Counted from the stretch's first letter, positions 2,766 through 59,597 are shown. The stretch is 64,000 bases of DNA from Candidatus Woesebacteria bacterium GW2011_GWB1_33_38 (GCA_000990005.1 LBPF01000001.1:90315-154314); one strand, 5' to 3'. The notes: generated by a model from the letters alone, not told the origin. Numbers and translations are program-made.

Positions 2766-2782
2766 TAAAACAATTAATCTGT

Positions 2783-2805
2783 GACGAGTTACGGGTTACG
2801 AGTTA
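2783..2805. repeat. 5' arm of an inverted repeat flanking the four-helix-bundle gene (gacgagttacgggttacgagtta)
   Basis: Bases 2793-2805 (gggttacgagtta) are the perfect reverse complement of 3200-3212 (taactcgtaaccc). Heptamer-like internal reiteration (gagttac/gggttac/gagtta). Confidence 0.7.
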
Positions 2806-2813
2806 AACAAAAT

Positions 2814-3176
2814 ATGAATATTGTAAAATTTGAGGATTTAGAAATCTGGAAATCAGCATTGTTGGTTACAAAAGATGTTTACGATATTACATCTCAGGGC
2901 AAGTTTTCAAAAGATTTTGGATTAAGAGATCAGATTAGAAGAGCTGTGGTGTCAATTAGTTCAAATATTGTCGAAGGTTTTGAAAAAAGAAATAATAATG
3001 AATTTAGACGATTTTTAATGATTTCGAAAGGTTCAGCTGGAGAAGTTAGAAACCAACTTTACATTGCTTTATCGATCAATTATATAAACAAATTAGAATT
3101 TGATAAGATAAATAGCCAGTTGCTAGAATTGTCAAAAAGGATGGGTGCGTTCATCAGTTATTTAACAAAAAAATGA
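2814..3176 (+). CDS. four-helix-bundle protein (23S rRNA intervening-sequence protein family)
   Basis: FEDLEIWKSALLVTKDVYDIT...RDQIRRAVVSISSNIVEGF...RFLMISKGSAGEVRNQLYIA is the canonical motif set of this family. The ATG at 2814 is preferred over the GTG at 2781. Confidence 0.8.
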   Translation: MNIVKFEDLEIWKSALLVTKDVYDITSQGKFSKDFGLRDQIRRAVVSISSNIVEGFEKRNNNEFRRFLMISKGSAGEVRNQLYIALSINYINKLEFDKINSQLLELSKRMGAFISYLTKK

Positions 3177-4818: not shown

Positions 4819-5037
4819 CTATTTTATAATTTCTTCTCTTGAAATTCCTGCCTCTCGAAGTAACGAAATCAGGGTTCCTTTTGGAATGTCGTTTAAATGC
4901 ATTGCAATAACTGCCCTTTTTCCATTTTTTGAATTAAACATTACAATATGACTCCCCGTTTGGTGATCTTCGATAAATCCTAATTTTTTAAGTTTCTTTA
5001 ATAATTTCTTTGACGTAAAATTTGGAAGTTTAGGCAT
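4819..5037 (-). CDS. hicA: type II toxin HicA (YcfA-like mRNA interferase)
   Basis: KKLGFIEDHQTGSHIVMFN...GKRAVIAMHLNDIPKGTLISLLREAGISREE matches the HicA consensus. Overlaps hicB by 8 nt. Confidence 0.8.
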   Translation of the reverse strand: MPKLPNFTSKKLLKKLKKLGFIEDHQTGSHIVMFNSKNGKRAVIAMHLNDIPKGTLISLLREAGISREEIIK

Positions 5038-5278
5038 ATGAAAACGGTATTGGTGTATCCATATTTATAGTTGAGAAGAATGAATGTTCATCGCTTGGTG
5101 CAACTTCCTCATGTTTTTTCAAACTGGCTAAATATGCGTTAATTGCTTCTTTAGCCATTTTTTTAGCTTCAGTTAAATTTTTACCATAAGTTACGCAACC
5201 AGGAAGCGAAGGAACTGAAACAGTAAACCCTCCTTCTGGTTCTGTCTTAAAAATTAAATTGTAAGTAACTTTTTTCAT
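5030..5278 (-). CDS. hicB: type II antitoxin HicB (UPF0150)
   Basis: YNLIFKTEPEGGFTVSVPSLPGCVTYGKNLTEAKKMAKEAINAYL is the classical HicB N-domain. Confidence 0.8.
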   Translation of the reverse strand: MKKVTYNLIFKTEPEGGFTVSVPSLPGCVTYGKNLTEAKKMAKEAINAYLASLKKHEEVAPSDEHSFFSTINMDTPIPFSYA

Positions 5279-5332: not shown

Positions 5333-6877
5333 ATGACTTCAAAGATTGAGATTAATGAAAAGTTTAAGGAGGCAATTGGTGCAGTTAGAGACGCGAAAAA
5401 TGTTTTTATTACAGGAAAGGCAGGAACGGGAAAATCCACACTTCTTAAAGTAATTAGAGATAATTTAGAAAAAAACCATGTAGTTTTAGCTCCAACAGGT
5501 GTTGCCGCTGTTAATATTGGGGGACAAACAATTCATTCTTTTTTTCGCTTTCGCCCTGATATCACAATTGAAAAAGTACAGAAAAAATATAAAACTGTCA
5601 AAAACCCTGAAATTTATAAAAATTTAGAAATTTTAATTATTGATGAAATTTCAATGGTCAGGGCTGATTTATTAGACTGTGTTAATACATTCTTAAAAAT
5701 GCATGGCCCTGACAAGGAAACGGCTTTTGGAGGTGTTCAACTTGTGTTTATCGGAGATTTATATCAGCTTCCTCCTGTTGTAACTTACAAAGAAAAAGAA
5801 ATATTTAGTACTATGTATGAAAGCCCTTACTTTTTTGATTCCAAAGCTTTTAAAGAAACCAAGTTTATTTTGATAGAACTTGAAAAAATTTATAGACAAA
5901 CCGAAGAAGATTTTATTAAAATTTTAAATGCCGTCAGGAATAGATCAATTGACGATAATTTATTAACTCTTCTAAATAAAAATACAAATTTTAATTTTGA
6001 ACTAAAGACTGACGAAGGATTTATAGAATTAGTAACAGTTAATGCCAAAGCTGATGAAATAAATTATAAAAAATTAACAAGTTTAGATGGAAAGATGTAT
6101 ACCTATGAAGGAGAGATTACTGGAGATTTTGATGAAAAAGCCTTTCCTGCACCACACATATTGGACTTAAAAATTGGATCTCAGGTAATGCTGACCAATA
6201 ATGACAAGTTGGGGAGGTGGATAAACGGAACGGTTGGAAAACTAGAAAAAATTAAAAAAGAAAATGATATTGAGAAAATTTGGGTAAGACTTGAAAATGG
6301 AGAATTAGTTGATGTGGCTCCTAATACCTGGGAAATGTATAAATTTTCATATGATTCTAAAAATAATAAAATAACCACAGAAACGACAGGGTCATTTACA
6401 CAGTATCCAATAATATTATCTTGGGCTATAACAATCCATAAATCCCAGGGCAAAACTTTTAACAAAGTAATTGTTGATATGGGTAGAGGATCTTTTGCTC
6501 ATGGTCAAACATATGTTGCATTATCAAGATGTACTACACTTTCAGGACTTGTTCTTCGTGTTCCAATTAAAAAAAGTCATATTCTGCTCGACTGGAAAGT
6601 TGTAAAGTTTTTGACAAGTTTTCAATATCAGTTATCAGATAATAATATTTCACTTGATGTAAAAATAGAATATTTAAAGAAAAAACTTGACGAGCAAGGC
6701 TCGTGTGATATCACTTATTTAAAATCTAATGATGAAAAAACAAAAAGGACAATTTGGCCAAGAGAAATTGGCAAGATGGAGTATCTTGGCAAGGAGTTTA
6801 TAGGTGTAATTGCCGATGATGACCTAAGGGGTGAAGAAAGAGTTTTCAGAGTAGATAGAATTTTGGAAATAAAGTAG
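5333..6877 (+). CDS. Pif1/RecD-family 5'-3' DNA helicase with a C-terminal WYL-like domain
   Basis: Walker A GKAGTGKSTLL; VLAPTGVAAVNIGGQTIHSFF; IIDEISMV; FGGVQLVFIGDLYQLPPV (Pif1 signature). C-terminal tail ...EFIGVIADDDLRGEERVFRVDRILEI resembles a WYL domain. Confidence 0.8.
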   Translation: MTSKIEINEKFKEAIGAVRDAKNVFITGKAGTGKSTLLKVIRDNLEKNHVVLAPTGVAAVNIGGQTIHSFFRFRPDITIEKVQKKYKTVKNPEIYKNLEILIIDEISMVRADLLDCVNTFLKMHGPDKETAFGGVQLVFIGDLYQLPPVVTYKEKEIFSTMYESPYFFDSKAFKETKFILIELEKIYRQTEEDFIKILNAVRNRSIDDNLLTLLNKNTNFNFELKTDEGFIELVTVNAKADEINYKKLTSLDGKMYTYEGEITGDFDEKAFPAPHILDLKIGSQVMLTNNDKLGRWINGTVGKLEKIKKENDIEKIWVRLENGELVDVAPNTWEMYKFSYDSKNNKITTETTGSFTQYPIILSWAITIHKSQGKTFNKVIVDMGRGSFAHGQTYVALSRCTTLSGLVLRVPIKKSHILLDWKVVKFLTSFQYQLSDNNISLDVKIEYLKKKLDEQGSCDITYLKSNDEKTKRTIWPREIGKMEYLGKEFIGVIADDDLRGEERVFRVDRILEIK

Positions 6878-6890
6878 TTATACTATAACC

Positions 6891-7616
6891 ATGAACTTAA
6901 AAGACAAAATTGCAGTTGTAACTGGTGGAAGTAGTGGAATTGGACAAGCAATTTGTATTGCTTTGGCAAAAGAAGGCTGTAAGGTAGTTTTTACTTATAA
7001 TACAAATGAAAAAGGGGCAGATGAAACTCTTAAAAAGTTGAATGATGATAGTTATAAATTCAAAGTTGATTTACAAAACGAAGAAGATATCAAGAATTTG
7101 TTTGATTTTGTAAAAGAAAAATTTGGGAAATTAGATATCTTAGTAAATAATGCCGGATACAGTAAGAGTGGTGACATTTTTGATCTAAAGTTATGGTCTA
7201 GGGCGTTAAATACCAATGTCTTGGGTTATATTACTGTAATAAAATATGCAAAGAATATTATTAATGAAGGTAAAATTTTAAATATTTCATCAGTTTACGC
7301 CGAAGATAAAGTTGCGTGGCCAGGCAAAGCTGCTGATGCAGCATCAAAATCTGCAATCAATAATTTAACACGAACTATAGCTAAAGAATTTGCTCCAAAA
7401 ATTAATGTAAATGCGATAGCGCCAGGTTATGTTGACACACGACTTTGGGATGAGTTTTCACCAGAGATTAAAAATGAAGCAAAAACAGAGCTCTTGATTG
7501 GAAGGTTGATTAAACCTTCAGAAATTGCAGAGATGGCGACGGCCATTATTAAAAACGACGCAATGACGGGTGAGGTGGTGGTGGTTGATGGTGGATTATC
7601 TCTAAAAACAGTATGA
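6891..7616 (+). CDS. SDR family oxidoreductase (paralogue of 4080-4817)
   Basis: VVTGGSSGIGQA, NNAG, the C-terminal NDAMTGEVVVVDGG motif shared with 4080-4817. Confidence 0.85.
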   Translation: MNLKDKIAVVTGGSSGIGQAICIALAKEGCKVVFTYNTNEKGADETLKKLNDDSYKFKVDLQNEEDIKNLFDFVKEKFGKLDILVNNAGYSKSGDIFDLKLWSRALNTNVLGYITVIKYAKNIINEGKILNISSVYAEDKVAWPGKAADAASKSAINNLTRTIAKEFAPKINVNAIAPGYVDTRLWDEFSPEIKNEAKTELLIGRLIKPSEIAEMATAIIKNDAMTGEVVVVDGGLSLKTV

Positions 7617-8071
7617 AATTAACTGAAAAAGACAAAAAGGAAATACTTACATTTTTAGGAAAACACAAGTTAATGTCCTTAGGAACTTATTACAAAGAAC
7701 CTTGGGCTGCTCCAGTTTATTATCTATTTGACGATGATTTGAATTTTTACTTTGTCAGTGGAACTAAAACTATACACGCTCAAAATATTTTGAAAAATCC
7801 AAAAGTTTCAATAACAATAGCTGATAGTAAACAGAACCCTAATGGTAAAAAGGTAGGTTTTCAAGCAAGGGGTAATGCCACTAAAGTAACTTCTGTCTCA
7901 GAAATTAAAGATATAATTATTGTATGGAATAAAAGAGGGTTTGTTCCTGTAACATATAAAATATTTAAAAAAGTATGGAAATCCAGGTTTTATAAGGTAA
8001 AGTTAAATAGGCTACAGATCTTTGACGAAAATCAAACAGGAGTCAAAGAAGTTAGAAATTGGAAAATATGA
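7613..8071 (+). CDS. pyridoxamine-5'-phosphate-oxidase-like FMN-binding split-barrel protein
   Basis: Size and motif pattern (LMSLGTY...PWAAPVYYLFDDDLNFYFVSG...HAQNILKNPKVSITI) are typical of the PNPOx-like / general stress protein 26 family. Confidence 0.6.
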   Translation: MKLTEKDKKEILTFLGKHKLMSLGTYYKEPWAAPVYYLFDDDLNFYFVSGTKTIHAQNILKNPKVSITIADSKQNPNGKKVGFQARGNATKVTSVSEIKDIIIVWNKRGFVPVTYKIFKKVWKSRFYKVKLNRLQIFDENQTGVKEVRNWKI

Positions 8072-8778
8072 ATTTAAAAGGAAAAGTTGTGGTTGTAACA
8101 GGCTCAAGTGATGGCATAGGCAAGCAAGTTGCTTTAAAACTTGCTAATGAAGGAGTTTTGTTGGCCTTAGTAGCTAGAGATGAAGACAGACTCAAAGAGG
8201 TTAAAAATAAATGTTTAGAATTGGGATCATCCAAAGTTGAAAGTTATTCATGCGATGTTTCAGATAAAGATAAAGTAAAGGAAACAATTAATAAGATTTT
8301 GGTGGATTTTAATACTGTTGACATTTTACTTAATATTGCAGGTGTTTGGCAAGAGTTAAACAAATTAGAAGATATATCCGATGAAGAAATTGATAGTGTT
8401 ATAAACATTAACTTGAAGGGTGTGATCTATGTTACTAAACAATTGTTAAAGTACTTCAAAGAAAGAGATGAAGAAGCAATTATCTTAAACGTCTCGTCCC
8501 GATCTGGTGTAACAACTCAAGAAGGCCAATCGATTTATACAGCTTCCAAATGGGGAGTAACAGGATTCACTGAGGTTTTGAAAACAGATCTTAAAAATTC
8601 AAAAATAAGAGTAGCTACGCTTCACCAAGGAGGAACTAACACTAACCTATTTAGTAAAACAGGCGAGCATTTTAATCAAGATAAGTTTATAAAACCTGAA
8701 GATTTGGCTGACGTTATAGTTTTTATGCTCTCACGTCCTCCTCAAATTTGGCTTCATGATGTAAGAGTCGAGTATTAA
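8059..8778 (+). CDS. SDR family oxidoreductase
   Basis: VVVVTGSSDGIGKQVA, NIAG, YTASK. Confidence 0.8.
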   Translation: MENMNLKGKVVVVTGSSDGIGKQVALKLANEGVLLALVARDEDRLKEVKNKCLELGSSKVESYSCDVSDKDKVKETINKILVDFNTVDILLNIAGVWQELNKLEDISDEEIDSVININLKGVIYVTKQLLKYFKERDEEAIILNVSSRSGVTTQEGQSIYTASKWGVTGFTEVLKTDLKNSKIRVATLHQGGTNTNLFSKTGEHFNQDKFIKPEDLADVIVFMLSRPPQIWLHDVRVEY

Positions 8779-10320
8779 TTGTATAATACCTTCATGGGAA
8801 AGGTTTATATTTTTGTTTTTGGAATATTAATACTTTTGGGGTTGGCTGATTCTGTTTTTTTAACTTGGGAACATTACACGCTAACTTCAATTGGGTGTCC
8901 TATTAGTCCTTGGATAAATTGCTTGGCAGTAACATCTTCTAAATATTCTGAAATATTAGGTATTCCATTATCTCTTTTGGGCTCAATTTATTATATTGTT
9001 TTGTTTTTTTTACTCTTGAAGAAAGAAACAATGTTTAAACACTTCTTTTTGCTGACATCAAGTTTTGGTGTTTTGTTTTCATTTTATCTAATCTATATCC
9101 AAGTTTTTGCGATTGGACTCTTTTGTTTATATTGCTTAGCTTCCGCCTTAATTTCCTTTTTAATATTTGGTTTAACATGGATCTTTTTCAAAAAAGAGTG
9201 GAGTACCTTGGTTGTAGACTCTCTTGGGTATGGTTATAAATTTATCTTAAAACCAATGTTATTTATGGTTGATGCTGAAGTCGTTCATGAAACCATGGTT
9301 AAAATGGGAGAGAGTTTGCCCAAACTAATACTTAATTTATTTAAAAGAATATTTGTTAAAAAATATAAAAACCTAGAGCAAAAAATATTAGACATTAAAT
9401 TTTTAAGCCCAATTGGCCTTGCAGCAGGATTTGATTATGAAGCAAGATTAACCCAAACACTTCCATTTATTGGTTTTGGCTTTCAAACAGTTGGAACCAT
9501 AACTAATATGAGTTATGGTGGTAATCCAAAACCAAGACTAGGTAGACTTCCGCAAAGCAAATCATTATTGGTTAATAAAGGTTTTAAAAATCTGGGTATT
9601 GAACAAACTTTAAAAAAATTATCAGAAAAAAAACTTATTTATCCTGTTGGCATTTCGATCGGAAGAACAAATTCACCTAAACTAGATACTATTGATAAAT
9701 CGATAACTGATATTTTGTCTGCATTTAAATATGCCAAAAATTTTAATATAAATAATGCCTATTACGAACTAAACATAAGCTGTCCTAATATTATTCATGA
9801 TGCTGGAATAAATTTTTACAAATATAATAATCTAGAAAAACTACTTCTTGAGATGGATAAAATTAAATTAACAAAGCCTATATTTGTAAAAATGCCGATT
9901 GATCAAACTGACGGTTATACATTAAAAATGTTAAATGTGATTTCAAGGCACAATATTAAGGGAGTTATATTTGGAAACTTGCAAACAAACAAGAAAAATA
10001 AAGTTCTAGTCAGTTCTGAAGTTAATAAATTTAAGATGGGTAAGTACTCAGGCAAACCAACTTTTGAAGATTCAAATAGATTAATTAAACTCACTTATAA
10101 AAATTTTAAAGATAGATTTATAATAATTGGCTGTGGAGGAGTGTTTAATGCAGATGATGCCTGGGTCAAGTTTGCAAACGGTGCAAGTTTAGTCCAACTC
10201 ATAACTGGAATGATTTTTGAGGGACCTCAACTTACTGCTCAAATAAATAGGGATCTTTCAGAAAGACTTCAAAAAGAAGGCTATAAAAACATTAGTCAGA
10301 TAGTTGGAAGTGCTATATAA
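8779..10320 (+). CDS. pyrD: fusion protein: N-terminal VKOR (vitamin K epoxide reductase) membrane domain + class-2-type dihydroorotate dehydrogenase domain
   Basis: VKOR part: loop cysteines GCPISPWINC, the S-x-ILGIPLSLLGSIYY motif, and an intramembrane CLYC (CxxC). DHODH part aligns along its length to E. coli PyrD: SPIGLAAGFDYEA, GFGFQTVGTITNMSYGGNPKPRLGRL, NKGFKNLG, NISCPN, IIGCGGVFNADDAWVKFANGASLVQLITGMIFEGP. Confidence 0.7.
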   Translation: MYNTFMGKVYIFVFGILILLGLADSVFLTWEHYTLTSIGCPISPWINCLAVTSSKYSEILGIPLSLLGSIYYIVLFFLLLKKETMFKHFFLLTSSFGVLFSFYLIYIQVFAIGLFCLYCLASALISFLIFGLTWIFFKKEWSTLVVDSLGYGYKFILKPMLFMVDAEVVHETMVKMGESLPKLILNLFKRIFVKKYKNLEQKILDIKFLSPIGLAAGFDYEARLTQTLPFIGFGFQTVGTITNMSYGGNPKPRLGRLPQSKSLLVNKGFKNLGIEQTLKKLSEKKLIYPVGISIGRTNSPKLDTIDKSITDILSAFKYAKNFNINNAYYELNISCPNIIHDAGINFYKYNNLEKLLLEMDKIKLTKPIFVKMPIDQTDGYTLKMLNVISRHNIKGVIFGNLQTNKKNKVLVSSEVNKFKMGKYSGKPTFEDSNRLIKLTYKNFKDRFIIIGCGGVFNADDAWVKFANGASLVQLITGMIFEGPQLTAQINRDLSERLQKEGYKNISQIVGSAI

Positions 10321-38529: not shown

Positions 38530-39810
38530 GTGAAGAAATATTTTCTAAAAGCTAAATCGTTAGTTTTATCTTCAACCGCAAAAGATACATATATCTTATT
38601 TTCTGGAAATATATTCTCGGCTTTCCTGGGTTTTGTTTTTACTCTAGTAGTCGCTCGTAGCTTGTCAGTTTCAGATTTTGGAATATTCTCTGCTGCTGTT
38701 AATTTGGTTGTTATCTTAAGTTCAATTACTGATTTAGGAATATCAACAGGAGCAGTTAATTTTGTAGCAGAGAATGAAGCGAAGGGTGATAAAGATTTAG
38801 TAAATAAATACATAAAAGCCTCTACCGTTTTACGATTTGAAGCTACACTAATAGCATCTTTATTGGTAATCTTTTTTGCAAAATATGTAGCTAACACATT
38901 TTTAATTACTGACAAGGTAAATGTTGCTATTTTGACATCATTAGTTTCCCTATCTCTTGCTTTACCTATGATATTTCCTTTTATTCTTCAAGCAAAGAAA
39001 AAATTTGTTTCCTCAATAATTTCTGATAATTCATTGTATTTAACAAGGCTGGTCTTTACTTTTGGATTTATGTTTTTGGCTAAAGTCACAATTGAAAATT
39101 CATTGCTAGCATTTATTATAGGTGGAGTTGTGGGAACTATTGTCAGTGTGTTTTTAATAAAGCCAGATTTCTTAAAATCTAAACCTGAAAAAGAAGTTTA
39201 TACTAAAATCATTAAATTTTCAGGCTGGATTGGTGTTAATAGAATTATCTCTTCAATTTCAGGTAGGTTAGATATCCAAATGCTTGCAGTTCTAGCTGGT
39301 GCTACTGCAACTGGACTTTATTCAATCCCATCAAGACTTGCAGGTTTTGTTGTAGTGTTAACATCCAGTCTCTCGGGTGTGTTTGCCTCAAGGCTTGCAA
39401 GTTTTGGAAATAAAGAAGAAGAAAAAAAATACATTGTAAAAGCAACACTTTCACTTCTGCCAATAGTAGCCGGGCTTATACTTTGGATAATTGTTGCTAA
39501 ACCTTTTATCTTAGTCCTTTTTGGAGAGAATTATTTTGATTCAATACCTGTATTTAAGGCTTTAGTTGCCGCAATGATTCCGTTTATTTTTACTGCACCT
39601 TCAGTTTCGGCCATTATATATGGCATGAAGAAAAACGTTTACATAGGTGCTTTTAGTTTTTTTCAATTAGCTGCTATATTTTTACTTAATCTTGTCTTTA
39701 TTCCTAAATATGGTGCCATCGGCCCGACAATTACTTTTGGTATAACTAACACAATTTTAGCAATTTATACTTGGATTATTGTAATCAACAATTATTGGAT
39801 TAAAAAATGA
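38530..39810 (+). CDS. oligosaccharide flippase (Wzx-type, MOP superfamily)
   Basis: 12-TM protein with a Wzx-like N-terminus (LVLSSTAKDTYILFSGNIFSAFLGFVFTLVVARSLSVSDFGIFSAAVNL). Appears to start with GTG. Confidence 0.7.
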   Translation: MKKYFLKAKSLVLSSTAKDTYILFSGNIFSAFLGFVFTLVVARSLSVSDFGIFSAAVNLVVILSSITDLGISTGAVNFVAENEAKGDKDLVNKYIKASTVLRFEATLIASLLVIFFAKYVANTFLITDKVNVAILTSLVSLSLALPMIFPFILQAKKKFVSSIISDNSLYLTRLVFTFGFMFLAKVTIENSLLAFIIGGVVGTIVSVFLIKPDFLKSKPEKEVYTKIIKFSGWIGVNRIISSISGRLDIQMLAVLAGATATGLYSIPSRLAGFVVVLTSSLSGVFASRLASFGNKEEEKKYIVKATLSLLPIVAGLILWIIVAKPFILVLFGENYFDSIPVFKALVAAMIPFIFTAPSVSAIIYGMKKNVYIGAFSFFQLAAIFLLNLVFIPKYGAIGPTITFGITNTILAIYTWIIVINNYWIKK

Positions 39811-46698: not shown

Positions 46699-48276
46699 CC
46701 TTTTAGTACGCAATTAGTATTTGAGTTTTGTTATTAATTCTTCAGTTTCTTTATTTTTTTGCCTTTTGGTGGTTATTTCACCTGTTATTGTATTTAAAAG
46801 TCTAACATCAGGAACAGACATAATTATGTCTTTAATTTCTCTTATGGACTTCTTATTTTTAAGTTCAATTGATTTAATGAGGCAAAGACTTAGAAAAACT
46901 ATTAAGATATGAGCTTTTATGCTTTCTTTTTTGTAGTGAAATACTGGTCTTGCTAAAAGATCTGATTTTGCAATTCTAAATGCTTTTTCAACATGCCAGA
47001 GGTCTTTATATCTTGAAATAATTAAGCTTGGTTCTTGATTTTTGAGGTTTGTATAATATCCTTTGATTCCTTCTAAAAGTTCATCTTTAAAAATGAGTTC
47101 TTGATTTAAAACTGGTTTTAATTTTGAAGTTTCTTTTACAAATCTTGATCTTTTTGAATATTTGCTATTTGAATTAATTTGATTTAATGCTTTTTGTATT
47201 TGTTTTTTCCTATCTGATCTATTTTTGTTTGCTCTTTTAACTGAATAGTCACAAAGGAGTATTCCTTTGTCTGTTTCTACTTGAAAAAAGATTCCCTCTG
47301 TTTTGTTTAAGGTATTTGAAAGCTCCTTAGTTAGTTTTAAAGGTAGGCTTGATATTCTTGCACCAACTATGTATTTTATGTCTTTTTGTACTAATTTTTG
47401 GATGTTATCAAATGAAAGCATCCCAGCATCTGCAACAATTGTTAAATTTTCTATTCCATGTTTTTTCTTGAAATTTTCAATTGTAGGTATCATTGTATGA
47501 CCCTCAAACGTATTACCACTAAAAACATCCATGGCTATTGGGTAACCCTCTTTTGTAACAATCAAAGAAACTAAAACTTGAGGCTGATTTGGTTTATTAT
47601 CTTTTGAAAATCCAATTCTCCTAAATTCCTCTTTATCTTCTTTAAAAGTTTCAAAATATAGTGTAGTTATGTCAAAAAAAACAAGTGAAAAGTCAAAAGA
47701 GAGATATTTTTTGGCATATTCAAAAGCCAACTTTTCAGCATCATCCTTTAGCCTGTTAAATCTTAACAGTCTTTTATACAAGGTATTTTTGGTGTAATTA
47801 ATTTCAAAATATTTCTTCAAAATACCTATACTTCTTAATTTAGAGCATGGATCAATTACTCTTACAATACTTAAGTCTTTTAAAAGTGAGTCCAATAATC
47901 CTTCAAAACCATTGAGTTTGTAATACTTTTCTAAAAACTGATATGCAAAAGAATAATTTAAACCAACAAAATCCAGACTATCTAAAGAGACAATATGATT
48001 TTTCTCAAACTCAGAAAAAAGTGAACCAGTCCTCTCATATTTTCTTACAAAATCATGTGCTAAACATATCAAACCTTGGAGTTTCCCAAAATCTTTAGTA
48101 CTTCCAATGTGTTTAATCACTTTATAATCATGTCCACCAGACACAACTTGAACAGAAACACCACCAGAAGCCAACTTCACTTTTCTAACCCTCATCTACC
48201 AATTCTAAACTAGTACGCAAATTAACAACAATTTGAAGCTAAAAGATATTAATTATTGGCTATGGAGAAAGTCAGG
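46699..48276 (-). mobile_element. IS1634-family (IS4 superfamily) insertion sequence, about 1.58 kb
   Basis: Single transposase ORF. 12-13 bp perfect terminal inverted repeats CTGACTTTCTCC (46699-46710, and reverse complement of 48264-48276). Flanked by a 39-bp direct duplication. Confidence 0.75.
46714..48195 (-). CDS. IS1634-family DDE transposase
   Basis: N-terminus MRVRKVKLASGG...YKVIKHIGS is of IS1634 type. C-terminal signature YKDLWHVEKAFRIAKSDLLARP (the IS4/IS1634 Y-R-E-K region). Confidence 0.75.
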   Translation of the reverse strand: MRVRKVKLASGGVSVQVVSGGHDYKVIKHIGSTKDFGKLQGLICLAHDFVRKYERTGSLFSEFEKNHIVSLDSLDFVGLNYSFAYQFLEKYYKLNGFEGLLDSLLKDLSIVRVIDPCSKLRSIGILKKYFEINYTKNTLYKRLLRFNRLKDDAEKLAFEYAKKYLSFDFSLVFFDITTLYFETFKEDKEEFRRIGFSKDNKPNQPQVLVSLIVTKEGYPIAMDVFSGNTFEGHTMIPTIENFKKKHGIENLTIVADAGMLSFDNIQKLVQKDIKYIVGARISSLPLKLTKELSNTLNKTEGIFFQVETDKGILLCDYSVKRANKNRSDRKKQIQKALNQINSNSKYSKRSRFVKETSKLKPVLNQELIFKDELLEGIKGYYTNLKNQEPSLIISRYKDLWHVEKAFRIAKSDLLARPVFHYKKESIKAHILIVFLSLCLIKSIELKNKKSIREIKDIIMSVPDVRLLNTITGEITTKRQKNKETEELITKLKY

Positions 48277-50748: not shown

Positions 50749-51659
50749 ATTTATCAATTGTAATCATATCCTCAAAGTTAGACTATTTAAACGACTGTCT
50801 AGAAACTTTATATTCTTCACTTAGGGGAGTAAAAAATGAAGTTATTTTAATCGATAATGTTTCAGTAGATAAAATTGGAGAAAAAATCAAATTAAAATAT
50901 CCAGCAGTTAAGGTTATTAGACGCGATGTGAATGGAGGATTTGGTGAAAATAACAACATGGGGATGAGGATTGCCAAGGGTCGTTATGTACTTCTCTTAA
51001 ACGATGATACAAAAATGATTGATAAGGAGATTTTCAAAGAAATGATTAATTGGATGGATAGTCATCCAAGGGTAGGTTTAGCCTCCTGTGCACTTTTGAA
51101 TCCTGACCTTAAAAACTATCAAGGTTCAGGTGGTTATTTTCCAACACTTCCAAGAGTTATAACTTGGATGTTGTTTATTGATGATATTCCATATCTTGAT
51201 AAATTAATTAAACCATATCACCCTATGCATGGATATTCATTTTTTCATACTAACGAAGAGTATTTTAAGGTAAGTCACAAACAAGATTGGGTTACAGGAG
51301 CCTTTTTTCTTATGCGAAAGACGGCTATGGACCAATCTGGTATATTTGATGAAGACTTCTTTTTGTATGTTGAAGAAGTTGAGCTTGCCTACAGAGTAGC
51401 CAAAAAAGGTTGGGAAACTTGGTATCTTCCAAAATGGAAAATAGTGCATTATGGAATGGCCACAAATGGGAGTGAGAAAGCAACTATTATGGAAATGCAA
51501 AACTTAAGACTTTTCTATAAAAAACATAAGCCCTCCTGGCAACTTCCAGTTCTTACCTTTTTCTTGAGATTTGGTGCCTTTTTACGCCTTTTTGTATATT
51601 TAATATTGGGTCGAATAAATATTGCTAAAATATATGCAAAAGCTATTGTCGCCGTATAA
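50730..51659 (+). CDS. GT2 family glycosyltransferase
   Basis: LSIVIISSKLDYLNDCLETL...ILIDNVSVD...LLLNDDTKM. Confidence 0.75.
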   Translation: MAKERLDLSIVIISSKLDYLNDCLETLYSSLRGVKNEVILIDNVSVDKIGEKIKLKYPAVKVIRRDVNGGFGENNNMGMRIAKGRYVLLLNDDTKMIDKEIFKEMINWMDSHPRVGLASCALLNPDLKNYQGSGGYFPTLPRVITWMLFIDDIPYLDKLIKPYHPMHGYSFFHTNEEYFKVSHKQDWVTGAFFLMRKTAMDQSGIFDEDFFLYVEEVELAYRVAKKGWETWYLPKWKIVHYGMATNGSEKATIMEMQNLRLFYKKHKPSWQLPVLTFFLRFGAFLRLFVYLILGRINIAKIYAKAIVAV

Positions 51660-52965
51660 GAGAATCTTGGCCAATTTCATTGGTAAATCGAATTTTTACA
51701 AATTCTTACTGACTTTTCTGCTTATTTTTATTCCTCTATTTCCAAAATTTCCAGCCCTTCGTATTATGGGTATATATGTTTCGGTACGTTTGGAAGATTT
51801 TTTAATTCTTTTTACATTTTTGGCATTCTTAATTCCAATATTTACAAATTTTAAGTCTTTAATTAAATTAAAAATTACACGATCAATTTTGATATTTTTA
51901 TTTATAGGACTTGTATCTACAATATCTGCTATTTATTTAACCCAAACAGTTTCGTCAAAAATTGTTTTACTTCATCTTTTTAGAAGAGTTGAATACTTGT
52001 CTTTATTCTTTATTGGCTTTGCTTATGTGAAATATGTTAATACTGACAAAAAAATCTTTGAATATATTATCAAAGTCTTACTTTTAGTTAATTTATTTAT
52101 ATTTTTGTATGGTTTAGGCCAACGTTATCTAGACTTTCCAGTAGTAACCACACAAAATGAAGAATATTCCAAGGGTATAGCACTTCGCTGGGTTCCTGGT
52201 TCACATATCAATTCAACATTTGCAGGCCATTATGATCTTGCTTCCTATCTTATTTTAACTATGCCAATTTTTGCAGCTTCATTTTTTGTATTTAAGGAAA
52301 AAATAAATAAGGTGATCTTTGGCTCATCTGTTTTGATCGGATTTTGGCTTCTTTCATCAGCTGTTTCAAGGATATCAGTTGTTGCTTTTTTGATCGCCTG
52401 TTCTATTACACTACTACTTACAAAAAAATATAAAGAGATAATTATTTTTGGCTTGATAAGTTTAATAGCTTTTGGATTCTCCCCTGATTTAAGAGCTAGA
52501 TATGGCAGAATTATTGATGTCGTAAAAAATAAAATGTCTTTAGTTTATACAGTGTATGCTGCAGATGAAGGACCTGTAGTATTTGAAGACAGATCAACCT
52601 CAATTAGATTAAATGTTGAGTGGCCCAGAGCAATTAGGGCATTTACTAAAAATCCATTAGTAGGTACTGGTTATTCTTCAATTACTTTAGCAACAGACAA
52701 TGACTATTTGAGGGCAATAGGTGAAACGGGTATTTTAGGATTATTGGCCTTTATTTTAATATTTTTTAATCTTAGTAAGATTTATAAAAATATTAAATTT
52801 ACAACTGATTTTGATTCTATATTTAAAGTTGGAATGATAGGGTCTACAATAGCAATTCTTTTAACTGCTGTGTTTATTGACATCTTTGAAGCATCAAAGT
52901 TTGCAACGATGTTCTGGTTGTTTACTGGGCTTTCAGTTGGAAGTATAAATAAGATTTATGAATAA
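51622..52965 (+). CDS. O-antigen ligase / polymerase-like membrane protein (Wzy_C domain family)
   Basis: About 12 TM helices with a large extracytoplasmic loop (ALRWVPGSHINSTFAGHYDLASYL) carrying the conserved Arg/His typical of the Wzy_C region. Confidence 0.55.
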   Translation: MLKYMQKLLSPYKRILANFIGKSNFYKFLLTFLLIFIPLFPKFPALRIMGIYVSVRLEDFLILFTFLAFLIPIFTNFKSLIKLKITRSILIFLFIGLVSTISAIYLTQTVSSKIVLLHLFRRVEYLSLFFIGFAYVKYVNTDKKIFEYIIKVLLLVNLFIFLYGLGQRYLDFPVVTTQNEEYSKGIALRWVPGSHINSTFAGHYDLASYLILTMPIFAASFFVFKEKINKVIFGSSVLIGFWLLSSAVSRISVVAFLIACSITLLLTKKYKEIIIFGLISLIAFGFSPDLRARYGRIIDVVKNKMSLVYTVYAADEGPVVFEDRSTSIRLNVEWPRAIRAFTKNPLVGTGYSSITLATDNDYLRAIGETGILGLLAFILIFFNLSKIYKNIKFTTDFDSIFKVGMIGSTIAILLTAVFIDIFEASKFATMFWLFTGLSVGSINKIYE

Positions 52966-56046: not shown

Positions 56047-56893
56047 TTATAATACAAAAGAACTTCTTTCGGATTGTTTAAAATCTGTTAAGGAGTATAT
56101 GAATGAAGTTCCTATGGAGGTTATAGTTTCAGATAACTCCAGTAATGACGGTAGCCAAGAAATGATAAAGAAGAATTTTCCTTGGGTTAAATTTATTGAG
56201 GGCCCAAATGAGGGTTTTTCAAAAGGAAACAATAGAGCAAAATCTCTTGTAGAAGGTGAGATGGTTCTATTCTTAAATCCTGATACAATAGTACATAAAG
56301 ATGTCTTTGTAAAAACAGTCAGATATTTGGATGAACATCCAAAGGTGGGAGCAGTTACTTGTAAATTGGTTCTTCCAAATGGAGATATGGATAAAGATGT
56401 GAGACGTAGGTTTCCTGTTCCATGGGTTTCTTTCCAGAAGTTGGTTTTAGGTAAAAGTAAATATTATTACTATGAAGATATCCCAGATAATGCAACACAT
56501 GAAGTTGAGGCAATACAGGGAGCATTTTTCTTAACCTACAAAAAACTTTTGGACAAAGTTGGTTGGTTTGATGAGAGATATTTCTTTGATGGTGAAGATG
56601 TTGACTTATGTTTCCAGATTAATAAAGCAGGCTATAGCCTTGTTTATTATCCTGATGTCTACATAACCCACCTTAAAGGAGTAACTAAGGGAAAGGTTAA
56701 GAAATGGAGACATAAATTAACTGATCAACAGAGAAAAAGAATAAGAATGGCAGGGGTTGCCTCCATGGAGCTTTTTTATCGGAAAAATCTTTGGAAAAAA
56801 TATCCAGTTTGGTTTAGTTATTTTGTTCTTCTCGGGATAAATCTTTATAAGGTCATAAGATTTGTAAGGGTAGTTTTGTTGTCTTCATACTAA
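56006..56893 (+). CDS. GT2 family glycosyltransferase
   Basis: LSVIILNYNTKELLSDCLKSV...DNSSNDGS...LFLNPDT. Confidence 0.75.
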   Translation: MYMTKPKLSVIILNYNTKELLSDCLKSVKEYMNEVPMEVIVSDNSSNDGSQEMIKKNFPWVKFIEGPNEGFSKGNNRAKSLVEGEMVLFLNPDTIVHKDVFVKTVRYLDEHPKVGAVTCKLVLPNGDMDKDVRRRFPVPWVSFQKLVLGKSKYYYYEDIPDNATHEVEAIQGAFFLTYKKLLDKVGWFDERYFFDGEDVDLCFQINKAGYSLVYYPDVYITHLKGVTKGKVKKWRHKLTDQQRKRIRMAGVASMELFYRKNLWKKYPVWFSYFVLLGINLYKVIRFVRVVLLSSY

Positions 56894-57414
56894 TGCGAAT
56901 ATTAATTGACGCTAGACTTTATGGTCCAAAAAATACTGGAAATGGTAGATATACCAAAGAGTTAGTTGAAAACCTAGCAAAGATAGATTCTAGAAATGAT
57001 TACATAATTTTACTGAGAAAAAATAATTTTAATGAAGTTAAATTACCTGATAACTTCAAAAAAGTTTTGGCAGATTTTAAACATTATTCTTTTGAAGAAC
57101 AGTTTAAACTACCATTTCTAATCAATAAATTTAAGCCTAATTTAGTTCATTTTCCTCATTTTAATGTACCCATTTTATATTTTGGGAAATTTGTGGTTAC
57201 TATACACGATCTCATAATGCATAAATTTACTGGTGGGGAAGCAACAACAAGAAAATTTCCAGTTTATCAAGTTTGGAGATTAGGTTATTACGTTACATTT
57301 ATCAAGTCTGTTTTTGGTTCAATTAAAATTATTGTTCCAAGTAAGACAGTGAAAAATGAAATAGTTGATTATTATGATATCGATCCTAAAAAAATTGAAG
57401 TAACTTATGAATAA
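56893..57414 (+). CDS. GT4 glycosyltransferase, N-terminal (acceptor-binding) Rossmann half only
   Basis: MRILIDARLYGPKNTGNGRYTKELVENLAKIDSRNDY parallels the N-termini of the intact GT4s at 45041 and 48513. Ends IEVTYE*. Confidence 0.6.
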   Translation: MRILIDARLYGPKNTGNGRYTKELVENLAKIDSRNDYIILLRKNNFNEVKLPDNFKKVLADFKHYSFEEQFKLPFLINKFKPNLVHFPHFNVPILYFGKFVVTIHDLIMHKFTGGEATTRKFPVYQVWRLGYYVTFIKSVFGSIKIIVPSKTVKNEIVDYYDIDPKKIEVTYE

Positions 57415-57937
57415 GCAAAAATATTTTATTTATACTGGTAATGCATATCCTCATAAAAACTTAGGGAGACTTATTGATGCTACAACTTCATTAAAAGTAA
57501 AATTAAAAATAGTCTCTGGTCGAAATATTTTCATTTCAAGATTAGAAAAAATAATTAAAAATAAGAAAGCGCAAAATTATGTTGATATATTAGGTTTTGT
57601 AAATGATAAATATTTAGAAAAATTATATAAAAATTCTATTGCTTTTGTCTTTCCTACTCTTACAGAAGGTTTTGGTTTGCCTCCGATGGAAGCAATTAAC
57701 GCTGGAACACTTGCAGTAGTCTCTGATATTCCAGTGCTTAAGGAAGTTTATGCTGAAAGTGTTTTTTATTTTGATCCATTGAATGTAAATTCAATCAAAG
57801 TAGCTTTAGAAAATGTTTTAAAAATGAATGATAATGAAAGAAAATTAATAATAGAGAAATCTCAAGAATTCCTAAAAAGATACTCATGGCTTAAAATGGC
57901 CAAAGAAACATTAAAAATCTACGAGTCGGTGGTATAA
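57407..57937 (+). CDS. GT4 glycosyltransferase, C-terminal (donor-binding) half only
   Basis: FVFPTLTEGFGLPPMEAINAGTLAVVSDIPVLKEV (E-x7-E). Start overlaps the upstream stop (TATGAATAA). Confidence 0.65.
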   Translation: MNKQKYFIYTGNAYPHKNLGRLIDATTSLKVKLKIVSGRNIFISRLEKIIKNKKAQNYVDILGFVNDKYLEKLYKNSIAFVFPTLTEGFGLPPMEAINAGTLAVVSDIPVLKEVYAESVFYFDPLNVNSIKVALENVLKMNDNERKLIIEKSQEFLKRYSWLKMAKETLKIYESVV

Positions 57938-57945
57938 TCAGAACT

Positions 57946-58101
57946 ATGGGATTTGAAGACAATATAGAAAAAGGAAAAACAAGTAGTAAACCAACTGTTG
58001 CATCAAAAATGACGTTTTGGGAAGCTATGAAAAATATTGAAAGACAACTTCATCAAATTGAAGAAGACCGCGAAAAACTCTTTGTGGAATATTCAAAATA
58101 A
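57946..58101 (+). CDS. small hypothetical ORF (51 aa, predicted helical), stop overlapping the next ATG (TAATG)
   Basis: Read by eye: MGFEDNIEKGKTSSKPTVASKMTFWEAMKNIERQLHQIEEDREKLFVEYSK*. Below the length cutoff of the ORF track. Confidence 0.3.
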   Translation: MGFEDNIEKGKTSSKPTVASKMTFWEAMKNIERQLHQIEEDREKLFVEYSK

Positions 58102-58370
58102 TGTATATTTTTATTGATGAATCAGGTACTGGGTCAAAAATTGGACACGCAACTATTGCAGTTGTATATCTTGAGATAATAAACCAAGCTAAGTTTGACA
58201 AAAGCTATAATAAAATATTAAACGAGTTAAGGCTTGATAATTTTCACTGGGCCGAACATGGATGGAAAGTTCGACAAAGATTTATTAATAAAATTTTGAG
58301 TTTAGATTTTATATATAAAGTTGCTTTGTTTGAAAACCCCGCATTGAAGCGGGGTCAACTTTCCAAGTAG
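58101..58370 (+). pseudogene. truncated DUF3800-family gene (N-terminal 89 aa only)
   Basis: MYIFIDESGTG is the DUF3800 N-terminal signature. Full-length members are more than 200 aa. Confidence 0.5.
58336..58353. terminator. GC-rich hairpin ccccgc-attgaa-gcgggg, with a T-run only on the minus-strand side
   Basis: Perfect 6-bp stem in an AT-rich context. Lies within the 3' end of the DUF3800 fragment. Confidence 0.25.
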
Positions 58371-58445
58371 CTTTTTAAAGCTCGGCCAACACGGGCCTTT
58401 GTCCTTGGGAGCTTGTTAATACTTGTATTGTAACATTTTTGTCAA

Positions 58446-59597
58446 ATGAATGGAATAAATCTAGATAATTTAAAAATTGCACTTGTTTATGATAGGGTAA
58501 ACAAATTTGGTGGGGCGGAGAGAGTGTTATTGTCCCTTCATGAGATGTTTCCAAATGCCCCACTTTATACATCAGTCTATAACGAGCTTTCAGCGAGTTG
58601 GGCTCATGATTTCCCAAAAATTTACACAACTTTCCTACAAAAGATACCTTTTTTAAAAAATAATCATGAATTAATTGGTTGGTTAATGCCACTGGCTTTT
58701 GAAACATTTGATTTTTCTAATTATGATTTAGTAATTTCAGTTACTTCTGAGGCTGCGAAAGGAATTATCACGGGTACTAATACATTACATGTTTGTTATT
58801 GTCTTACTCCAACGAGATATCTTTGGAGCGCTAGGGACTTTTATTTTAATAATCCTCCAAAAAAGTTTAATATTTTTCCATTTTTTAAAATTTTTGCAAA
58901 ACCGTTTGTAGGTTATCTTGAAAAGTGGGATTCTATTGCAAGTACAAGGCCGGACAAAATGATAGCAATATCAACTGAAGTTAAAAGTAGAATTAAAAAA
59001 TATTACAAAAGAAATTCTGAAATAATTTATCCCCCATGCGATTTGCCAAGAAAAGTAATGGGGAGTTCGAAGGGTAAATATTATTTTATTCATGGAAGAT
59101 TTGAACCTTACAAACGACTCGATTTGGTAATTGACGTATTTAATGATTTAGAACTTCGCCTTGTGGTTTCAGGTTCCGGATCAGAATTCTTGAGATTACA
59201 ACGAAAGGCTAACCAAAACATTAAGTTTGTATATAAACCTAGTGATAATCAGCTACCCGATTTGTATAAAAATGCCATGGCGTTTCTGATGCCTCAAGAA
59301 GAAGATTTTGGTATCACCTCCGTTGAGGCTCAAAGTTTTGGAGTGCCTGTGATTGCTTATAATAAAGGTGGGGCAATAGATACTGTCATACCAGACAAGA
59401 CTGGAGTTCTTTTTAACAGTCAAACAAAAGAAATTTTGAAGCAGGCAATTGCAAAATTTGATACAATGAGATTTAATAATATAGACTTAATAAATAATGC
59501 TAAAATTTTTTCAAAGGAAAGATTCAAAAGGGAATTACAAAGATCACTTGTACGCTCTTATCTTAGCTGGAGGTGGGGGGACAAGACTCTGGCCTAA
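58446..59597 (+). CDS. GT4 family glycosyltransferase
   Basis: KFGGAERVLLSL; QEEDFGITSVEAQSFGVPVIAYNKGG. Confidence 0.8.
   Translation: MNGINLDNLKIALVYDRVNKFGGAERVLLSLHEMFPNAPLYTSVYNELSASWAHDFPKIYTTFLQKIPFLKNNHELIGWLMPLAFETFDFSNYDLVISVTSEAAKGIITGTNTLHVCYCLTPTRYLWSARDFYFNNPPKKFNIFPFFKIFAKPFVGYLEKWDSIASTRPDKMIAISTEVKSRIKKYYKRNSEIIYPPCDLPRKVMGSSKGKYYFIHGRFEPYKRLDLVIDVFNDLELRLVVSGSGSEFLRLQRKANQNIKFVYKPSDNQLPDLYKNAMAFLMPQEEDFGITSVEAQSFGVPVIAYNKGGAIDTVIPDKTGVLFNSQTKEILKQAIAKFDTMRFNNIDLINNAKIFSKERFKRELQRSLVRSYLSWRWGDKTLA

Follow-up and report, generated by a model that had tools for sequence, protein, structure and literature searches.

A one-gene fusion of a membrane VKOR and a Cys-type class-2 dihydroorotate dehydrogenase in Candidatus Woesebacteria, a putative two-site quinone enzyme

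How do bacteria that lack a respiratory chain run two quinone-dependent reactions? The question is raised by a single gene of Candidatus Woesebacteria bacterium GW2011_GWB1_33_38, belonging to the Candidate Phyla Radiation (CPR), situated at positions 8779-10320 on the forward strand of a 64,000-nucleotide stretch of its genome (LBPF01000001.1:90315-154314; hereafter the window, to which all coordinates refer). The gene joins an intact membrane-embedded homologue of vitamin K epoxide reductase (VKOR) to a cytoplasmic dihydroorotate dehydrogenase (DHODH) of the type that carries a cysteine as catalytic base. Both families reduce quinone, VKOR with electrons from exported thiols at the outer leaflet of the membrane and class-2 DHODH with electrons from dihydroorotate at the inner leaflet, and judged by their residues both domains of the fusion look genuine and catalytically intact. 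An earlier inspection of the sequence alone (the original prediction) had noticed the fusion and was partly confirmed, in that its core observation is real, whilst its statements on the quinone-site helices and on the cysteine base required correction. The architecture, residue conservation, folds, topology and distribution of the protein were computed here.

The open reading frame (ORF) is a single uninterrupted frame of 513 codons from a TTG start at 8779 (stop codon 10318-10320), and an in-frame ATG at 8794 gives the 508-residue form found in the database entry P0001. The GC content is approximately 30% throughout the window. Every motif quoted in the original prediction was found in the translation, namely GCPISPWINC (residues 39-48), ILGIPLSLLGSIYY (residues 59-72) and CLYC (residues 116-119) of the VKOR part, SPIGLAAGFD, GNPKPRLGRL, NKGFKNLG, IIGCGGV and GASLVQLITGMIFEGP of the PyrD-like part, and the base motif NISCPN (residues 332-337). 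Hidden Markov model (HMM) scans placed the Pfam VKOR and DHO_dh domains both above their cut-offs. A cluster search of a 5.8-billion-protein database (NCBI, JGI, ENA and Logan assemblies), from which the 120 best clusters were taken, retrieved the same architecture from other genomes; 119 of the clusters carried PF07884 and PF01180 in one protein of approximately 500-580 amino acids, and their hosts were Woesebacteria, Roizmanbacteria and Microgenomates. The motif N[IV]SCPN was present in all 120, and the CxxC motif in 119. Entry P0001 alone occurs on 23 contigs, and an identical protein in a Candidatus Woesebacteria genome has been annotated as 'dihydroorotate dehydrogenase 2, nonfunctional'. 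That an assembly error or frameshift has joined two separate genes is scarcely credible, since 119 clusters from independent assemblies share the architecture, the frame is continuous, and the AlphaFold2 (AF2) model predicts a continuous junction between the last transmembrane helix and the helix that follows it.

Residues 14-134 (8818-9180, forward strand, as are all parts of the fusion given below) matched the Pfam VKOR model PF07884 with 88.6 bits against a cut-off of 27.5 (E=5e-25), covering model positions 3-134 of 134. In the AF2 model this part consists of four transmembrane helices, at approximately residues 2-34, 64-80, 84-112 and 117-136, with a short loop helix at 48-52. A model of the domain alone had a pLDDT of 82.7, and when it was used in a Foldseek search of the Protein Data Bank (PDB) the top 14 matches were all VKORs (TMq 0.66-0.77, probability 1.00), including those of Synechococcus (4nv5/3kp9) and the human and Takifugu 6wv series, below which the E-values jumped above 1. 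The shuttle cysteine pair and hallmark serine lie in an outer-face loop (8896-8940; Cys40 at 8896-8898, Cys48 at 8920-8922 and Ser54 at 8938-8940), and the CLYC motif (9124-9135; Cys116-x-x-Cys119) was assigned by conservation and topology as the redox-active CXXC at the outer end of the fourth helix. Each of the four cysteines was more than 99% conserved in the 120 fusion proteins. Cys40 and Cys48 are 8 residues apart and Ser54 stands 6 beyond Cys48, a spacing that we take to be equal to that of Cys43, Cys51 and Ser57 in human VKORC1. Comparison with 28 free CPR VKORs (147-197 amino acids, 34-41% identical to the fused domain, the named ones from Minisyncoccota and Yanofskybacteria) revealed that these four cysteines and Ser54 are all invariant, and that the fused domain keeps every other residue invariant amongst the free proteins, these being GLADS, Val51, Tyr56-Ser57, Tyr118 and Ser122-Ala123.

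Application of the positive-inside rule to 119 members gave net charges of +0.8 for the N-terminus, +2.1 for the loop between helices 2 and 3 and +0.9 for the segment after helix 4, with only +0.15 and +0.24 for the cysteine-bearing loops. The predicted topology therefore has the N-terminus inside, both cysteine loops outside and the flavoenzyme in the cytoplasm, and this placement of the N-terminus and cysteine loops is the established arrangement of VKORs. In its four-helix fold, cysteine pair, serine, CXXC motif and topology the domain is like other bacterial VKORs, such as the Synechococcus VKOR-thioredoxin protein (3kp9/4nv5), the VKOR that works with MdbA in Actinomyces oris, and the free CPR proteins. 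Known VKOR fusions, however, join an outer thioredoxin (Trx)-like partner through a fifth transmembrane helix, whereas here a cytoplasmic flavoenzyme comes straight after the fourth; the fusion has neither a fifth transmembrane helix nor a Trx-like domain, and no Trx-like gene adjoins it.

The C-terminal part was assigned to class 2 of the DHODHs. Residues 199-497 (9373-10269), the FMN-binding TIM barrel by both Pfam and Foldseek comparison with 8ofw, matched DHO_dh (PF01180) with 167.1 bits against a cut-off of 27 (E=6.4e-49), and the NCBIfam class-2 model TIGR01036 scored 218.7 bits against a cut-off of 200, with residues 156-512 lying on model positions 3-354. The best matches amongst PDB sequences were quinone-dependent enzymes (Helicobacter pylori 6b8s at 2e-38, Mycobacterium tuberculosis 8ofw and Escherichia coli 1f76, residues 3-332 of which aligned with residues 153-489 of the fusion), in agreement with the E. 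coli PyrD likeness that had been proposed. Class-1A enzymes in the PDB matched only at approximately 1e-11 to 1e-12, as against 1e-38 for class 2, and class-1 models scored far below their cut-offs (TIGR01037, 73.8 versus 270; NF002702, 62.7 versus 301). The AF2 model of the whole chain had a mean pLDDT of 92.1 and a pTM of 0.86, the latter suggesting a defined inter-domain arrangement.

It had been proposed that the VKOR domain replaces the helices which form the quinone site of class-2 enzymes, an idea that these data rule out. The helices are kept as residues 138-198 (9190-9372), identified from alignments and the AF2 model as the membrane-docking, quinone-tunnel domain of class 2, in which helices 138-161, 166-178 and 182-192 precede the barrel and the last VKOR helix (117-136) leads almost directly into the first of them. 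Both the HMM and the pairwise alignment begin at position 3 of the class-2 sequence, and the AF2 model superposed on full-length M. tuberculosis 8ofw over 360 columns with a target-normalised TM-score of 0.94 and an rmsd of 1.7 Å (Foldseek). His170 (9286-9288) and Arg256 (9544-9546) were invariant in 120 of 120 members; they correspond to E. coli His19 and Arg102, which we take to be the quinone- and inhibitor-site residues equivalent to human His56 and Arg136. The fold thus resembles that of the E. coli, M. tuberculosis and H. pylori enzymes, N-terminal helical quinone domain included, with the equivalents of His19, Arg102, Asn172, Asn177, Lys217 and Asn246 and the FMN glycine motifs kept. 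It differs from theirs in its cysteine for the serine base, in the move of the Lys66 equivalent to the position of Met113, and in the covalent link to a four-helix VKOR. Its hosts, moreover, reportedly neither synthesise quinone nor respire.

The suggestion that the VKOR domain serves as membrane anchor, second quinone site, or both fits these data, although its premise of replaced helices does not stand. An anchoring role is supported by relatives whose N-terminus is occupied at this point by a different membrane module, such as a PAP2 domain (P0148) or a single transmembrane helix. Human DHODH has a single, non-catalytic N-terminal transmembrane anchor before its alpha1-alpha2 quinone domain; the fusion likewise places a membrane segment directly before the quinone domain, the anchor here being a four-helix redox enzyme instead. 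That the VKOR part is an inert anchor which has lost its catalysis, as the unrelated segments found at that position might suggest, is nonetheless highly improbable, because the catalytic residues are fully conserved: the five hallmark residues are retained, together with GLADS, Tyr118 and Ser122-Ala123, across members of 48-100% identity.

The base motif NISCPN (9772-9789) aligns with the class-2 motif N-[IL]-S-S-P-N, so that Cys335 (9781-9783) occupies the position of E. coli Ser175, as the original prediction had stated. Cysteine was found there in all 120 family members, the class-2 serine base being absent. Class-II DHODHs use a serine base and those of class I a cysteine (PMC8520639). 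The description of the motif as class-1-like holds for the base itself, since the fumarate-dependent class-1A enzymes (Lactococcus lactis PyrDa and Trypanosoma cruzi DHOD) have the same N-x-S-C-P-N with a cysteine base; it does not hold for the protein, which by sequence family groups with class 2, with class-1 models far below cut-off, whereas class 1A has no N-terminal membrane domain. Nor is the cysteine tied to the fusion, as had been implied. It was also found in unfused homologues from CPR and DPANN organisms and in otherwise canonical class-2 enzymes, and is special neither to the fusion nor to the CPR. Cysteine-bearing PyrDs with a canonical class-2 pocket include that of Fodinibius sp. 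SL11 (L031), a cultured Balneolales isolate, and those at L035, L029 and L042; their occurrence in Balneolales, Flavobacteriaceae and Obscuribacteraceae suggests that the serine-to-cysteine switch has happened repeatedly in bacteria, as in fungi.

The fungal precedent was described by Bouwknegt et al. (2021; PMC8520639), who found that class-II DHODs of anaerobic fungi (ArUra9, SjUra9 and DbUra9) carry cysteine and support respiration-independent pyrimidine synthesis. In SjUra9 the cysteine was required anaerobically, the electron acceptor of ArUra9 was free flavins, and cysteine was linked, though not universally, to anaerobic function (PMC8520639). These enzymes have in common with the fusion a class-II scaffold with a cysteine base and an origin in organisms of anoxic habitats. 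They are not fused to VKOR, however, and the Neocallimastigomycete enzymes, which use free flavins, no longer possess the N-terminal quinone domain that the fusion keeps.

A HMMER search of 1.84 billion representative sequences with residues 150-513 retrieved 622 proteins at E<=1e-30, and diagnostic positions were typed in the best 150 of these and in at least 47 genome loci. Grade A sequences have Tyr at position 220, Val-Asn-Lys at 265-267, Cys at 335, Leu at 401 and Ile at 475, occur both fused and unfused, and originated from Woesebacteria, Roizmanbacteria, Microgenomates, Patescibacteria, Paceibacterota and Pacearchaeota. Grade B sequences, mostly unfused, have Lys, Val-x-(Tyr/Ala/Phe), Cys, Leu and mostly Ile or Val at these positions, and were retrieved from Parcubacteria, Andersenbacteria, Berkelbacteria, metagenome-assembled genomes (MAGs) labelled Saccharibacteria, Woesearchaeota, Nanoarchaeota and Pacearchaeota. 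Grade C keeps the pocket of canonical class-2 enzymes (Lys, Asn-Arg-Met, Ser or Cys, Thr and Tyr); most of its members carry Ser (Bacteroidota, Cyanobacteria, Pelagibacter and Bacilli) and a minority Cys (Fodinibius sp. SL11, a Flavobacteriaceae MAG and Obscuribacteraceae). Several GTDB-representative MAGs with CPR/DPANN-type genes (L010, L011, L018 and L029) bear the labels Pseudomonadales, Methanosarcinales or Kordia, and have probably been mis-binned or mis-assigned.

At the position of the class-2 active-site lysine (E. coli Lys66), Tyr220 (9436-9438) was found in 120 of 120 family members, and this may lie behind the 'nonfunctional' database label. In all 306 class-2-like DHODH sequences collected, however, exactly one lysine was present at either position 220 or position 267 (Lys267, 9577-9579): 141 had Lys220 without Lys267, 165 had Lys267 without Lys220, and none had both or neither. 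Grades B and A show a reciprocal swap, Lys220 with Tyr267 in the former and Tyr220 with Lys267 in the latter, the Lys/Tyr arrangement being presumably that of human DHODH. We read this as the relocation of an indispensable active-site lysine from 220 to 267, a reading preferred over its loss given the exclusivity in 306 of 306 sequences. So read, the pattern points to a conserved functional active site and would be evidence of continued catalysis.

The canonical orotate and FMN ligands of the E. coli enzyme are presumably Lys66, Asn111, Asn172, Asn177, Lys217, Asn246 and Thr247. Of these, Asn172, Asn177, Lys217 and Asn246 have invariant equivalents, and within the fusion family (n=120) Asn332, Asn337, Lys371, Asn400, Ser424-Gly425 and Gly453-Gly454 showed no variation. 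Beyond the base, the pocket deviates from that of class 2 in many places, a difference that the original prediction had missed, with Val at the position of Asn111, Ser at Asn139, Leu or Ile at Thr178, Leu at Thr247 and Ile at Tyr318. Two of these changes fall in the substrate loop V265-N266-K267-G-F-K270 (9571-9588; E. coli N111-R-M-G-F-N116) and in Asn400-Leu401 (9976-9981; E. coli Asn246-Thr247), where the asparagine is kept and the threonine is leucine clade-wide. The change at Asn139 is invariant in grade A and in the majority in grade B, and Tyr318 is replaced mostly by Ile or Val in both grades. Position 178 is Leu or Ile in the family of the query and widely variable elsewhere in A and B, whilst Lys267 and Lys270 are new and invariant. 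From the sequences compared, the cysteine base, the moved lysine and the pocket changes are traits of a clade that spans CPR and DPANN, independent of the fusion.

A neighbour-joining tree of the DHODH domain, without support values, nested the grades in the order C with Ser, C with Cys, B and A, and scattered the VKOR-fused members amongst the unfused members of grade A. A VKOR fusion was also detected by Pfam on a grade B enzyme (P0162). These patterns suggest more than one gain or loss of the fusion, although the VKOR-domain tree that was built to distinguish a single from multiple origins had long branches, and some of the 'free' database entries could be truncated gene calls. No VKOR gene was found around the unfused homologues at L009, L012 and L013 within up to 10 kb (only ~550 bp upstream at L012), and the idea of a separate VKOR gene beside them was discarded. 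Other fusions in the Cys-type clade include an N-terminal PAP2 (lipid-phosphate phosphatase) domain in P0148 and a C-terminal cytidylyltransferase-like domain in P0142 (both by Pfam). P0245 has an N-terminal segment of 300 amino acids with five transmembrane helices and an intramembrane CxxC, without a Pfam match, on a Cys enzyme with a canonical pocket, and further relatives have single N-terminal transmembrane helices. N-terminal membrane modules are therefore recurrent in the clade, VKOR being the commonest.

The reading that we favour, and hold tentatively, is that of a two-site quinone enzyme in which the VKOR domain also anchors the DHODH and the two sites share a scarce, probably host-derived quinone. 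On either face of the membrane, one polypeptide would carry a redox module, both of them intact and dependent on quinone. The VKOR module (residues ~8-136), of ordinary CPR type, would use Cys40 and Cys48 to oxidise a dithiol partner of MdbA or DsbA type at the outer face, encoded elsewhere, and pass the electrons through Cys116 and Cys119 to a lipid quinone. The fourth helix would lead straight into the class-2 helices (138-198) and thence to the cytoplasmic FMN barrel (199-513). This module most likely still oxidises dihydroorotate, with Cys335 taking the C5 proton, hydride passing to FMN, and FMN being re-oxidised through a tunnel lined by His170 and Arg256. The fusion would give a normally peripheral DHODH a permanent four-helix anchor and group its two quinone sites about a common quinone, probably a scavenged one. 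By analogy with the fungal Cys-type class-II DHODs, the cysteine base, the moved lysine and the Asn-to-Val and Thr-to-Leu changes may mark operation without a respiratory chain. Which substrates are used, which way the electrons flow, what the quinone is and where it comes from, and by what route the quinol is re-oxidised are matters of inference.

Several observations weigh against this proposal. Neither quinone biosynthesis nor respiratory complexes that oxidise quinol are reported to be present in CPR bacteria (PMC5113843, PMC8407418), which leaves two quinone reducers in one protein without known quinol recycling, and these bacteria are generally described as mostly lacking nucleotide synthesis (PMC4742961), though some Woesearchaeota have near-complete pyrimidine pathways (PMC8421398). 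Of ten NCBIfam class-2 equivalogs, the nine derived from PRK05286 scored below their cut-offs (for instance NF003652, 257 versus 267, and NF003651, 275 versus 448). Throughout grades A and B, E. coli Asn111 is replaced by Val and Thr247 by Leu, residues which we take to contact the N1/O2 edge of orotate in the E. coli, human and L. lactis structures, so that the pocket is partly hydrophobic on that side. Asn266 may stand in for Asn111 if the loop is one residue shorter, and dihydroorotate is still the most economical substrate, though the specificity may be altered. Searches by tblastn with E. coli PyrB, PyrE, PyrF and PyrI detected none of these in the window or within 10 kb of the 26 listed CPR/DPANN homologues, a PyrB-like match at L008 being an ornithine carbamoyltransferase in an arg cluster. 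The missing neighbours say little, because pyr genes were adjacent at only 4 of the ~50-60 canonical class-2 loci listed. The window, which represents ~6% of the genome, holds no pyr, Trx/DsbA or quinone-biosynthesis genes, and no Trx/DsbA-like partner was found fused, in the window, or within 10 kb at the nine annotated fused loci; the gene for the VKOR redox partner may lie elsewhere. CPR are enriched in a family of MdbA-like oxidoreductases, often adjoining VKOR (PMC6744442). Lastly, a role as anchor only does not account for VKOR being far commoner than any other fusion partner.

Any coupling of the two halves would have to run through a lipid quinone. The original prediction had considered that the VKOR cysteines might relay dihydroorotate-derived electrons into a thiol-disulfide system; a direct relay of this kind is implausible, because Cys40/Cys48 and Cys116/Cys119 are predicted at the outer face and FMN in the cytoplasm, a 20-residue transmembrane helix apart, with no conserved chain of cysteines between them. 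It is possible, if doubtful, that one captive quinone of scavenged origin travels back and forth from the VKOR site outside to the flavoenzyme tunnel inside, with payment in either direction: the formation of disulfides in exported proteins paid for by flavin-dependent reduction of a cytoplasmic acceptor, or the oxidation of dihydroorotate by reduction of extracellular disulfides, the two directions together being no more than a possibility of that same doubtful kind. In the first direction, VKOR would oxidise the thiols of exported proteins and reduce the captive quinone, the DHODH-like domain would re-oxidise the quinol at its tunnel, and FMN would reduce an enoate in the cytoplasm, for example fumarate, Cys335 donating the proton as in class 1A, to give a self-contained, respiration-independent terminal oxidase for disulfides; this too we regard as possible but doubtful. 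It would suit hosts that have no respiratory chain or quinol oxidases and yet widely keep VKOR and MdbA, and in which no further enzyme with a predicted quinone site was seen here apart from the DHODH-like clade, widespread in CPR and DPANN. The repeated gain or loss of the fusion, on two pocket grades, is a signal of the Rosetta-stone type, the cysteine base is that of the fumarate-reducing class-1A enzymes, the pocket is remodelled, and no pyr genes lie nearby at the loci listed. There are also precedents, the DsbB-menaquinone-fumarate reductase route of E. coli being one such anaerobic electron sink. The Erv1-Osm1-fumarate sink for the disulfide relay of yeast is another (PMC5638582). Both are functional analogies only, pairing a thiol oxidase with a flavin-dependent enoate reductase; they consist of separate proteins with a dedicated fumarate reductase of high flavin potential, whereas the fusion is known here from sequence and predicted structure. 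Energetics speak against this direction. Menaquinol lies at approximately -74 mV. The FMN bound to DHODs has a far lower potential of -242 to -330 mV (PMC8520639), so that transfer from quinol to FMN would be strongly uphill unless the flavin potential were raised. In addition, Asn332, Asn337, Asn400 and the lysine are conserved in the manner of an orotate-binding site, no gene related to fumarate lies nearby, and the unfused homologues show no linkage to VKOR genes. The opposite direction, in which dihydroorotate electrons are exported to an extracytoplasmic thiol-disulfide system by a reversed VKOR, via quinol or a direct cysteine relay, is very unlikely. It would offer an outlet for DHODH electrons in an anaerobe without a respiratory chain, the modules are physically joined, and transfer from dihydroorotate (approximately -250 mV) to protein disulfides is downhill overall. 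The direct relay is, however, excluded by topology, the reduction of a disulfide by quinol would be uphill with menaquinone and we know of no precedent for a VKOR run in reverse, and in its VKOR residues the fusion does not differ from the free CPR proteins, presumed to be oxidases.

A further alternative draws on the genes immediately upstream. A short-chain dehydrogenase (SDR) gene (8059-8778, forward; Pfam adh_short) has its stop codon abutting the TTG start of the fusion, and is preceded by a gene for a PNPOx-like FMN-binding protein (7613-8071, forward; Pfam PNPOx_N); whether either belongs to the system is uncertain. By comparison with the PDB the SDR is generic, whilst the PNPOx-like protein had no sequence relative there. 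Of the nine annotated fused loci, six had an SDR and five a PNPOx-like protein within one to four genes of the fusion, their order varying from locus to locus (loci with the pattern include L006, L092, L093, L094, L095 and L004), with three genes of each kind around the fusion at L094; NUDIX, Cupin, Ser_hydrolase and glycan genes are frequent companions. The DHODH-like domain might have acquired a new substrate and work with the PNPOx-like protein, the SDR and possibly polyprenyl-linked glycan machinery, which we consider unlikely. The clade-wide replacement of the Asn111, Thr178, Thr247 and Tyr318 equivalents, the new invariants Lys267 and Lys270, the neighbouring genes, the fusion of P0148 to PAP2 and the position of the gene inside a 64-kb glycan island would agree with it. 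On the other hand, three of the four asparagines, the FMN ligand Lys371 and an active-site lysine are strictly kept, the TIGR01036 cut-off is passed, and the chemistry of the DHODH family is limited to carbonyl-activated C-C bonds. The neighbour pattern is, moreover, confined to related Microgenomates-type loci and absent from the other CPR/DPANN loci listed: no partner gene was consistent across the 26, with SDR, PNPOx and NUDIX in a few only. An analogy with DprE1/DprE2-like polyprenyl-sugar epimerases (flavoenzyme, SDR and GT-C glycosyltransferase) was set aside as of low prior probability, since the Asn triad and lysine are kept and the chemistry misfits alcohol oxidation. A role as flavoprotein electron acceptor is conceivable for the PNPOx-like protein, by analogy with the fungal Cys-type DHOD that uses free flavins.

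The window as a whole is one mostly co-directional island for surface-glycan assembly. It encodes 16 PMT/PMT_2 (GT-C) proteins, approximately ten glycosyltransferases each of families GT2 and GT4, epimerases and dehydratases, many S-adenosylmethionine-dependent methyltransferases, and GNAT and hexapeptide acyltransferases, along with a Wzx-like flippase (38530-39810), a Wzy_C protein (51622-52965), a sugar-nucleotidyltransferase-like ORF (59497-60639) and a Bac_transf initiating transferase (60644-61297). For a genome of ~1 Mb this is an unusually large investment. One GT4 appears to be divided between two ORFs in different frames with an 8-base overlap (Glyco_transf_4 N-domain, 56893-57414; Glycos_transf_1 C-domain, 57407-57937, forward), for which a frameshift, decay to a pseudogene or a true split may account. 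Between glycosyltransferases, and far from any rRNA, stands a gene of the '23S rRNA intervening sequence protein' family (PF05635, E=8e-34; 2781-3176, forward). A HicA toxin/HicB-like antitoxin pair (4819-5278) is encoded on the opposite strand within the glycan cluster, and AbiEii and PIN/MazE toxin-antitoxin genes adjoin the fusion at L004, L092 and L095. A DDE transposase (46714-48195, reverse) and a PIF1-like helicase (5333-6877, forward) hint at mobile-element activity within the island. The Rfam motif DUF3800-II RNA was detected at 58353-58419 on the reverse strand (61 bits against a gathering cut-off of 43.2, E=4e-10). It overlaps a short ORF without annotation (58101-58370, forward) at the 3' end of the latter, and a DUF3800 protein gene is present at the related locus L004. 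At 6 of the 26 listed loci, in both domains of life (L002, L019, L021, L024, L025 and L027), a P-type cation ATPase of ~760-810 amino acids was encoded within 10 kb, which may reflect chance or a shared transferred block.

A full-text literature search retrieved no account of a VKOR-DHODH fusion, nor of such a PyrD-like gene or clade in CPR or DPANN, and a paper on VKOR phylogeny makes no mention of the fusion. What is new is the fusion architecture and the signature of the CPR/DPANN subfamily; both domain families are known, and Cys-type class-II enzymes have their fungal precedent. The clade extends the Cys-type class-II DHODs, recently recognised in a few fungi as independent of respiration, to a large radiation of prokaryotes, and bears on whether the reduced genomes of CPR truly lack pyrimidine synthesis. 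CPR widely keep disulfide formation by VKOR, which elsewhere depends on a quinone pool recycled by respiration. That VKOR is recurrently fused with the one further quinone-site enzyme seen in these lineages provides a testable lead, in the form of a shared scavenged quinone or of mutual recycling. Should the DHODH domain be an ordinary PyrD with an anchor, the fusion would be a modest architectural curiosity. If instead the captive quinone does carry electrons from VKOR to the flavoenzyme, it would constitute a route to oxidative protein folding in CPR that is independent of a respiratory chain, and the free VKORs and free Cys-type DHODH-like enzymes of other CPR and DPANN organisms would act likewise in trans.

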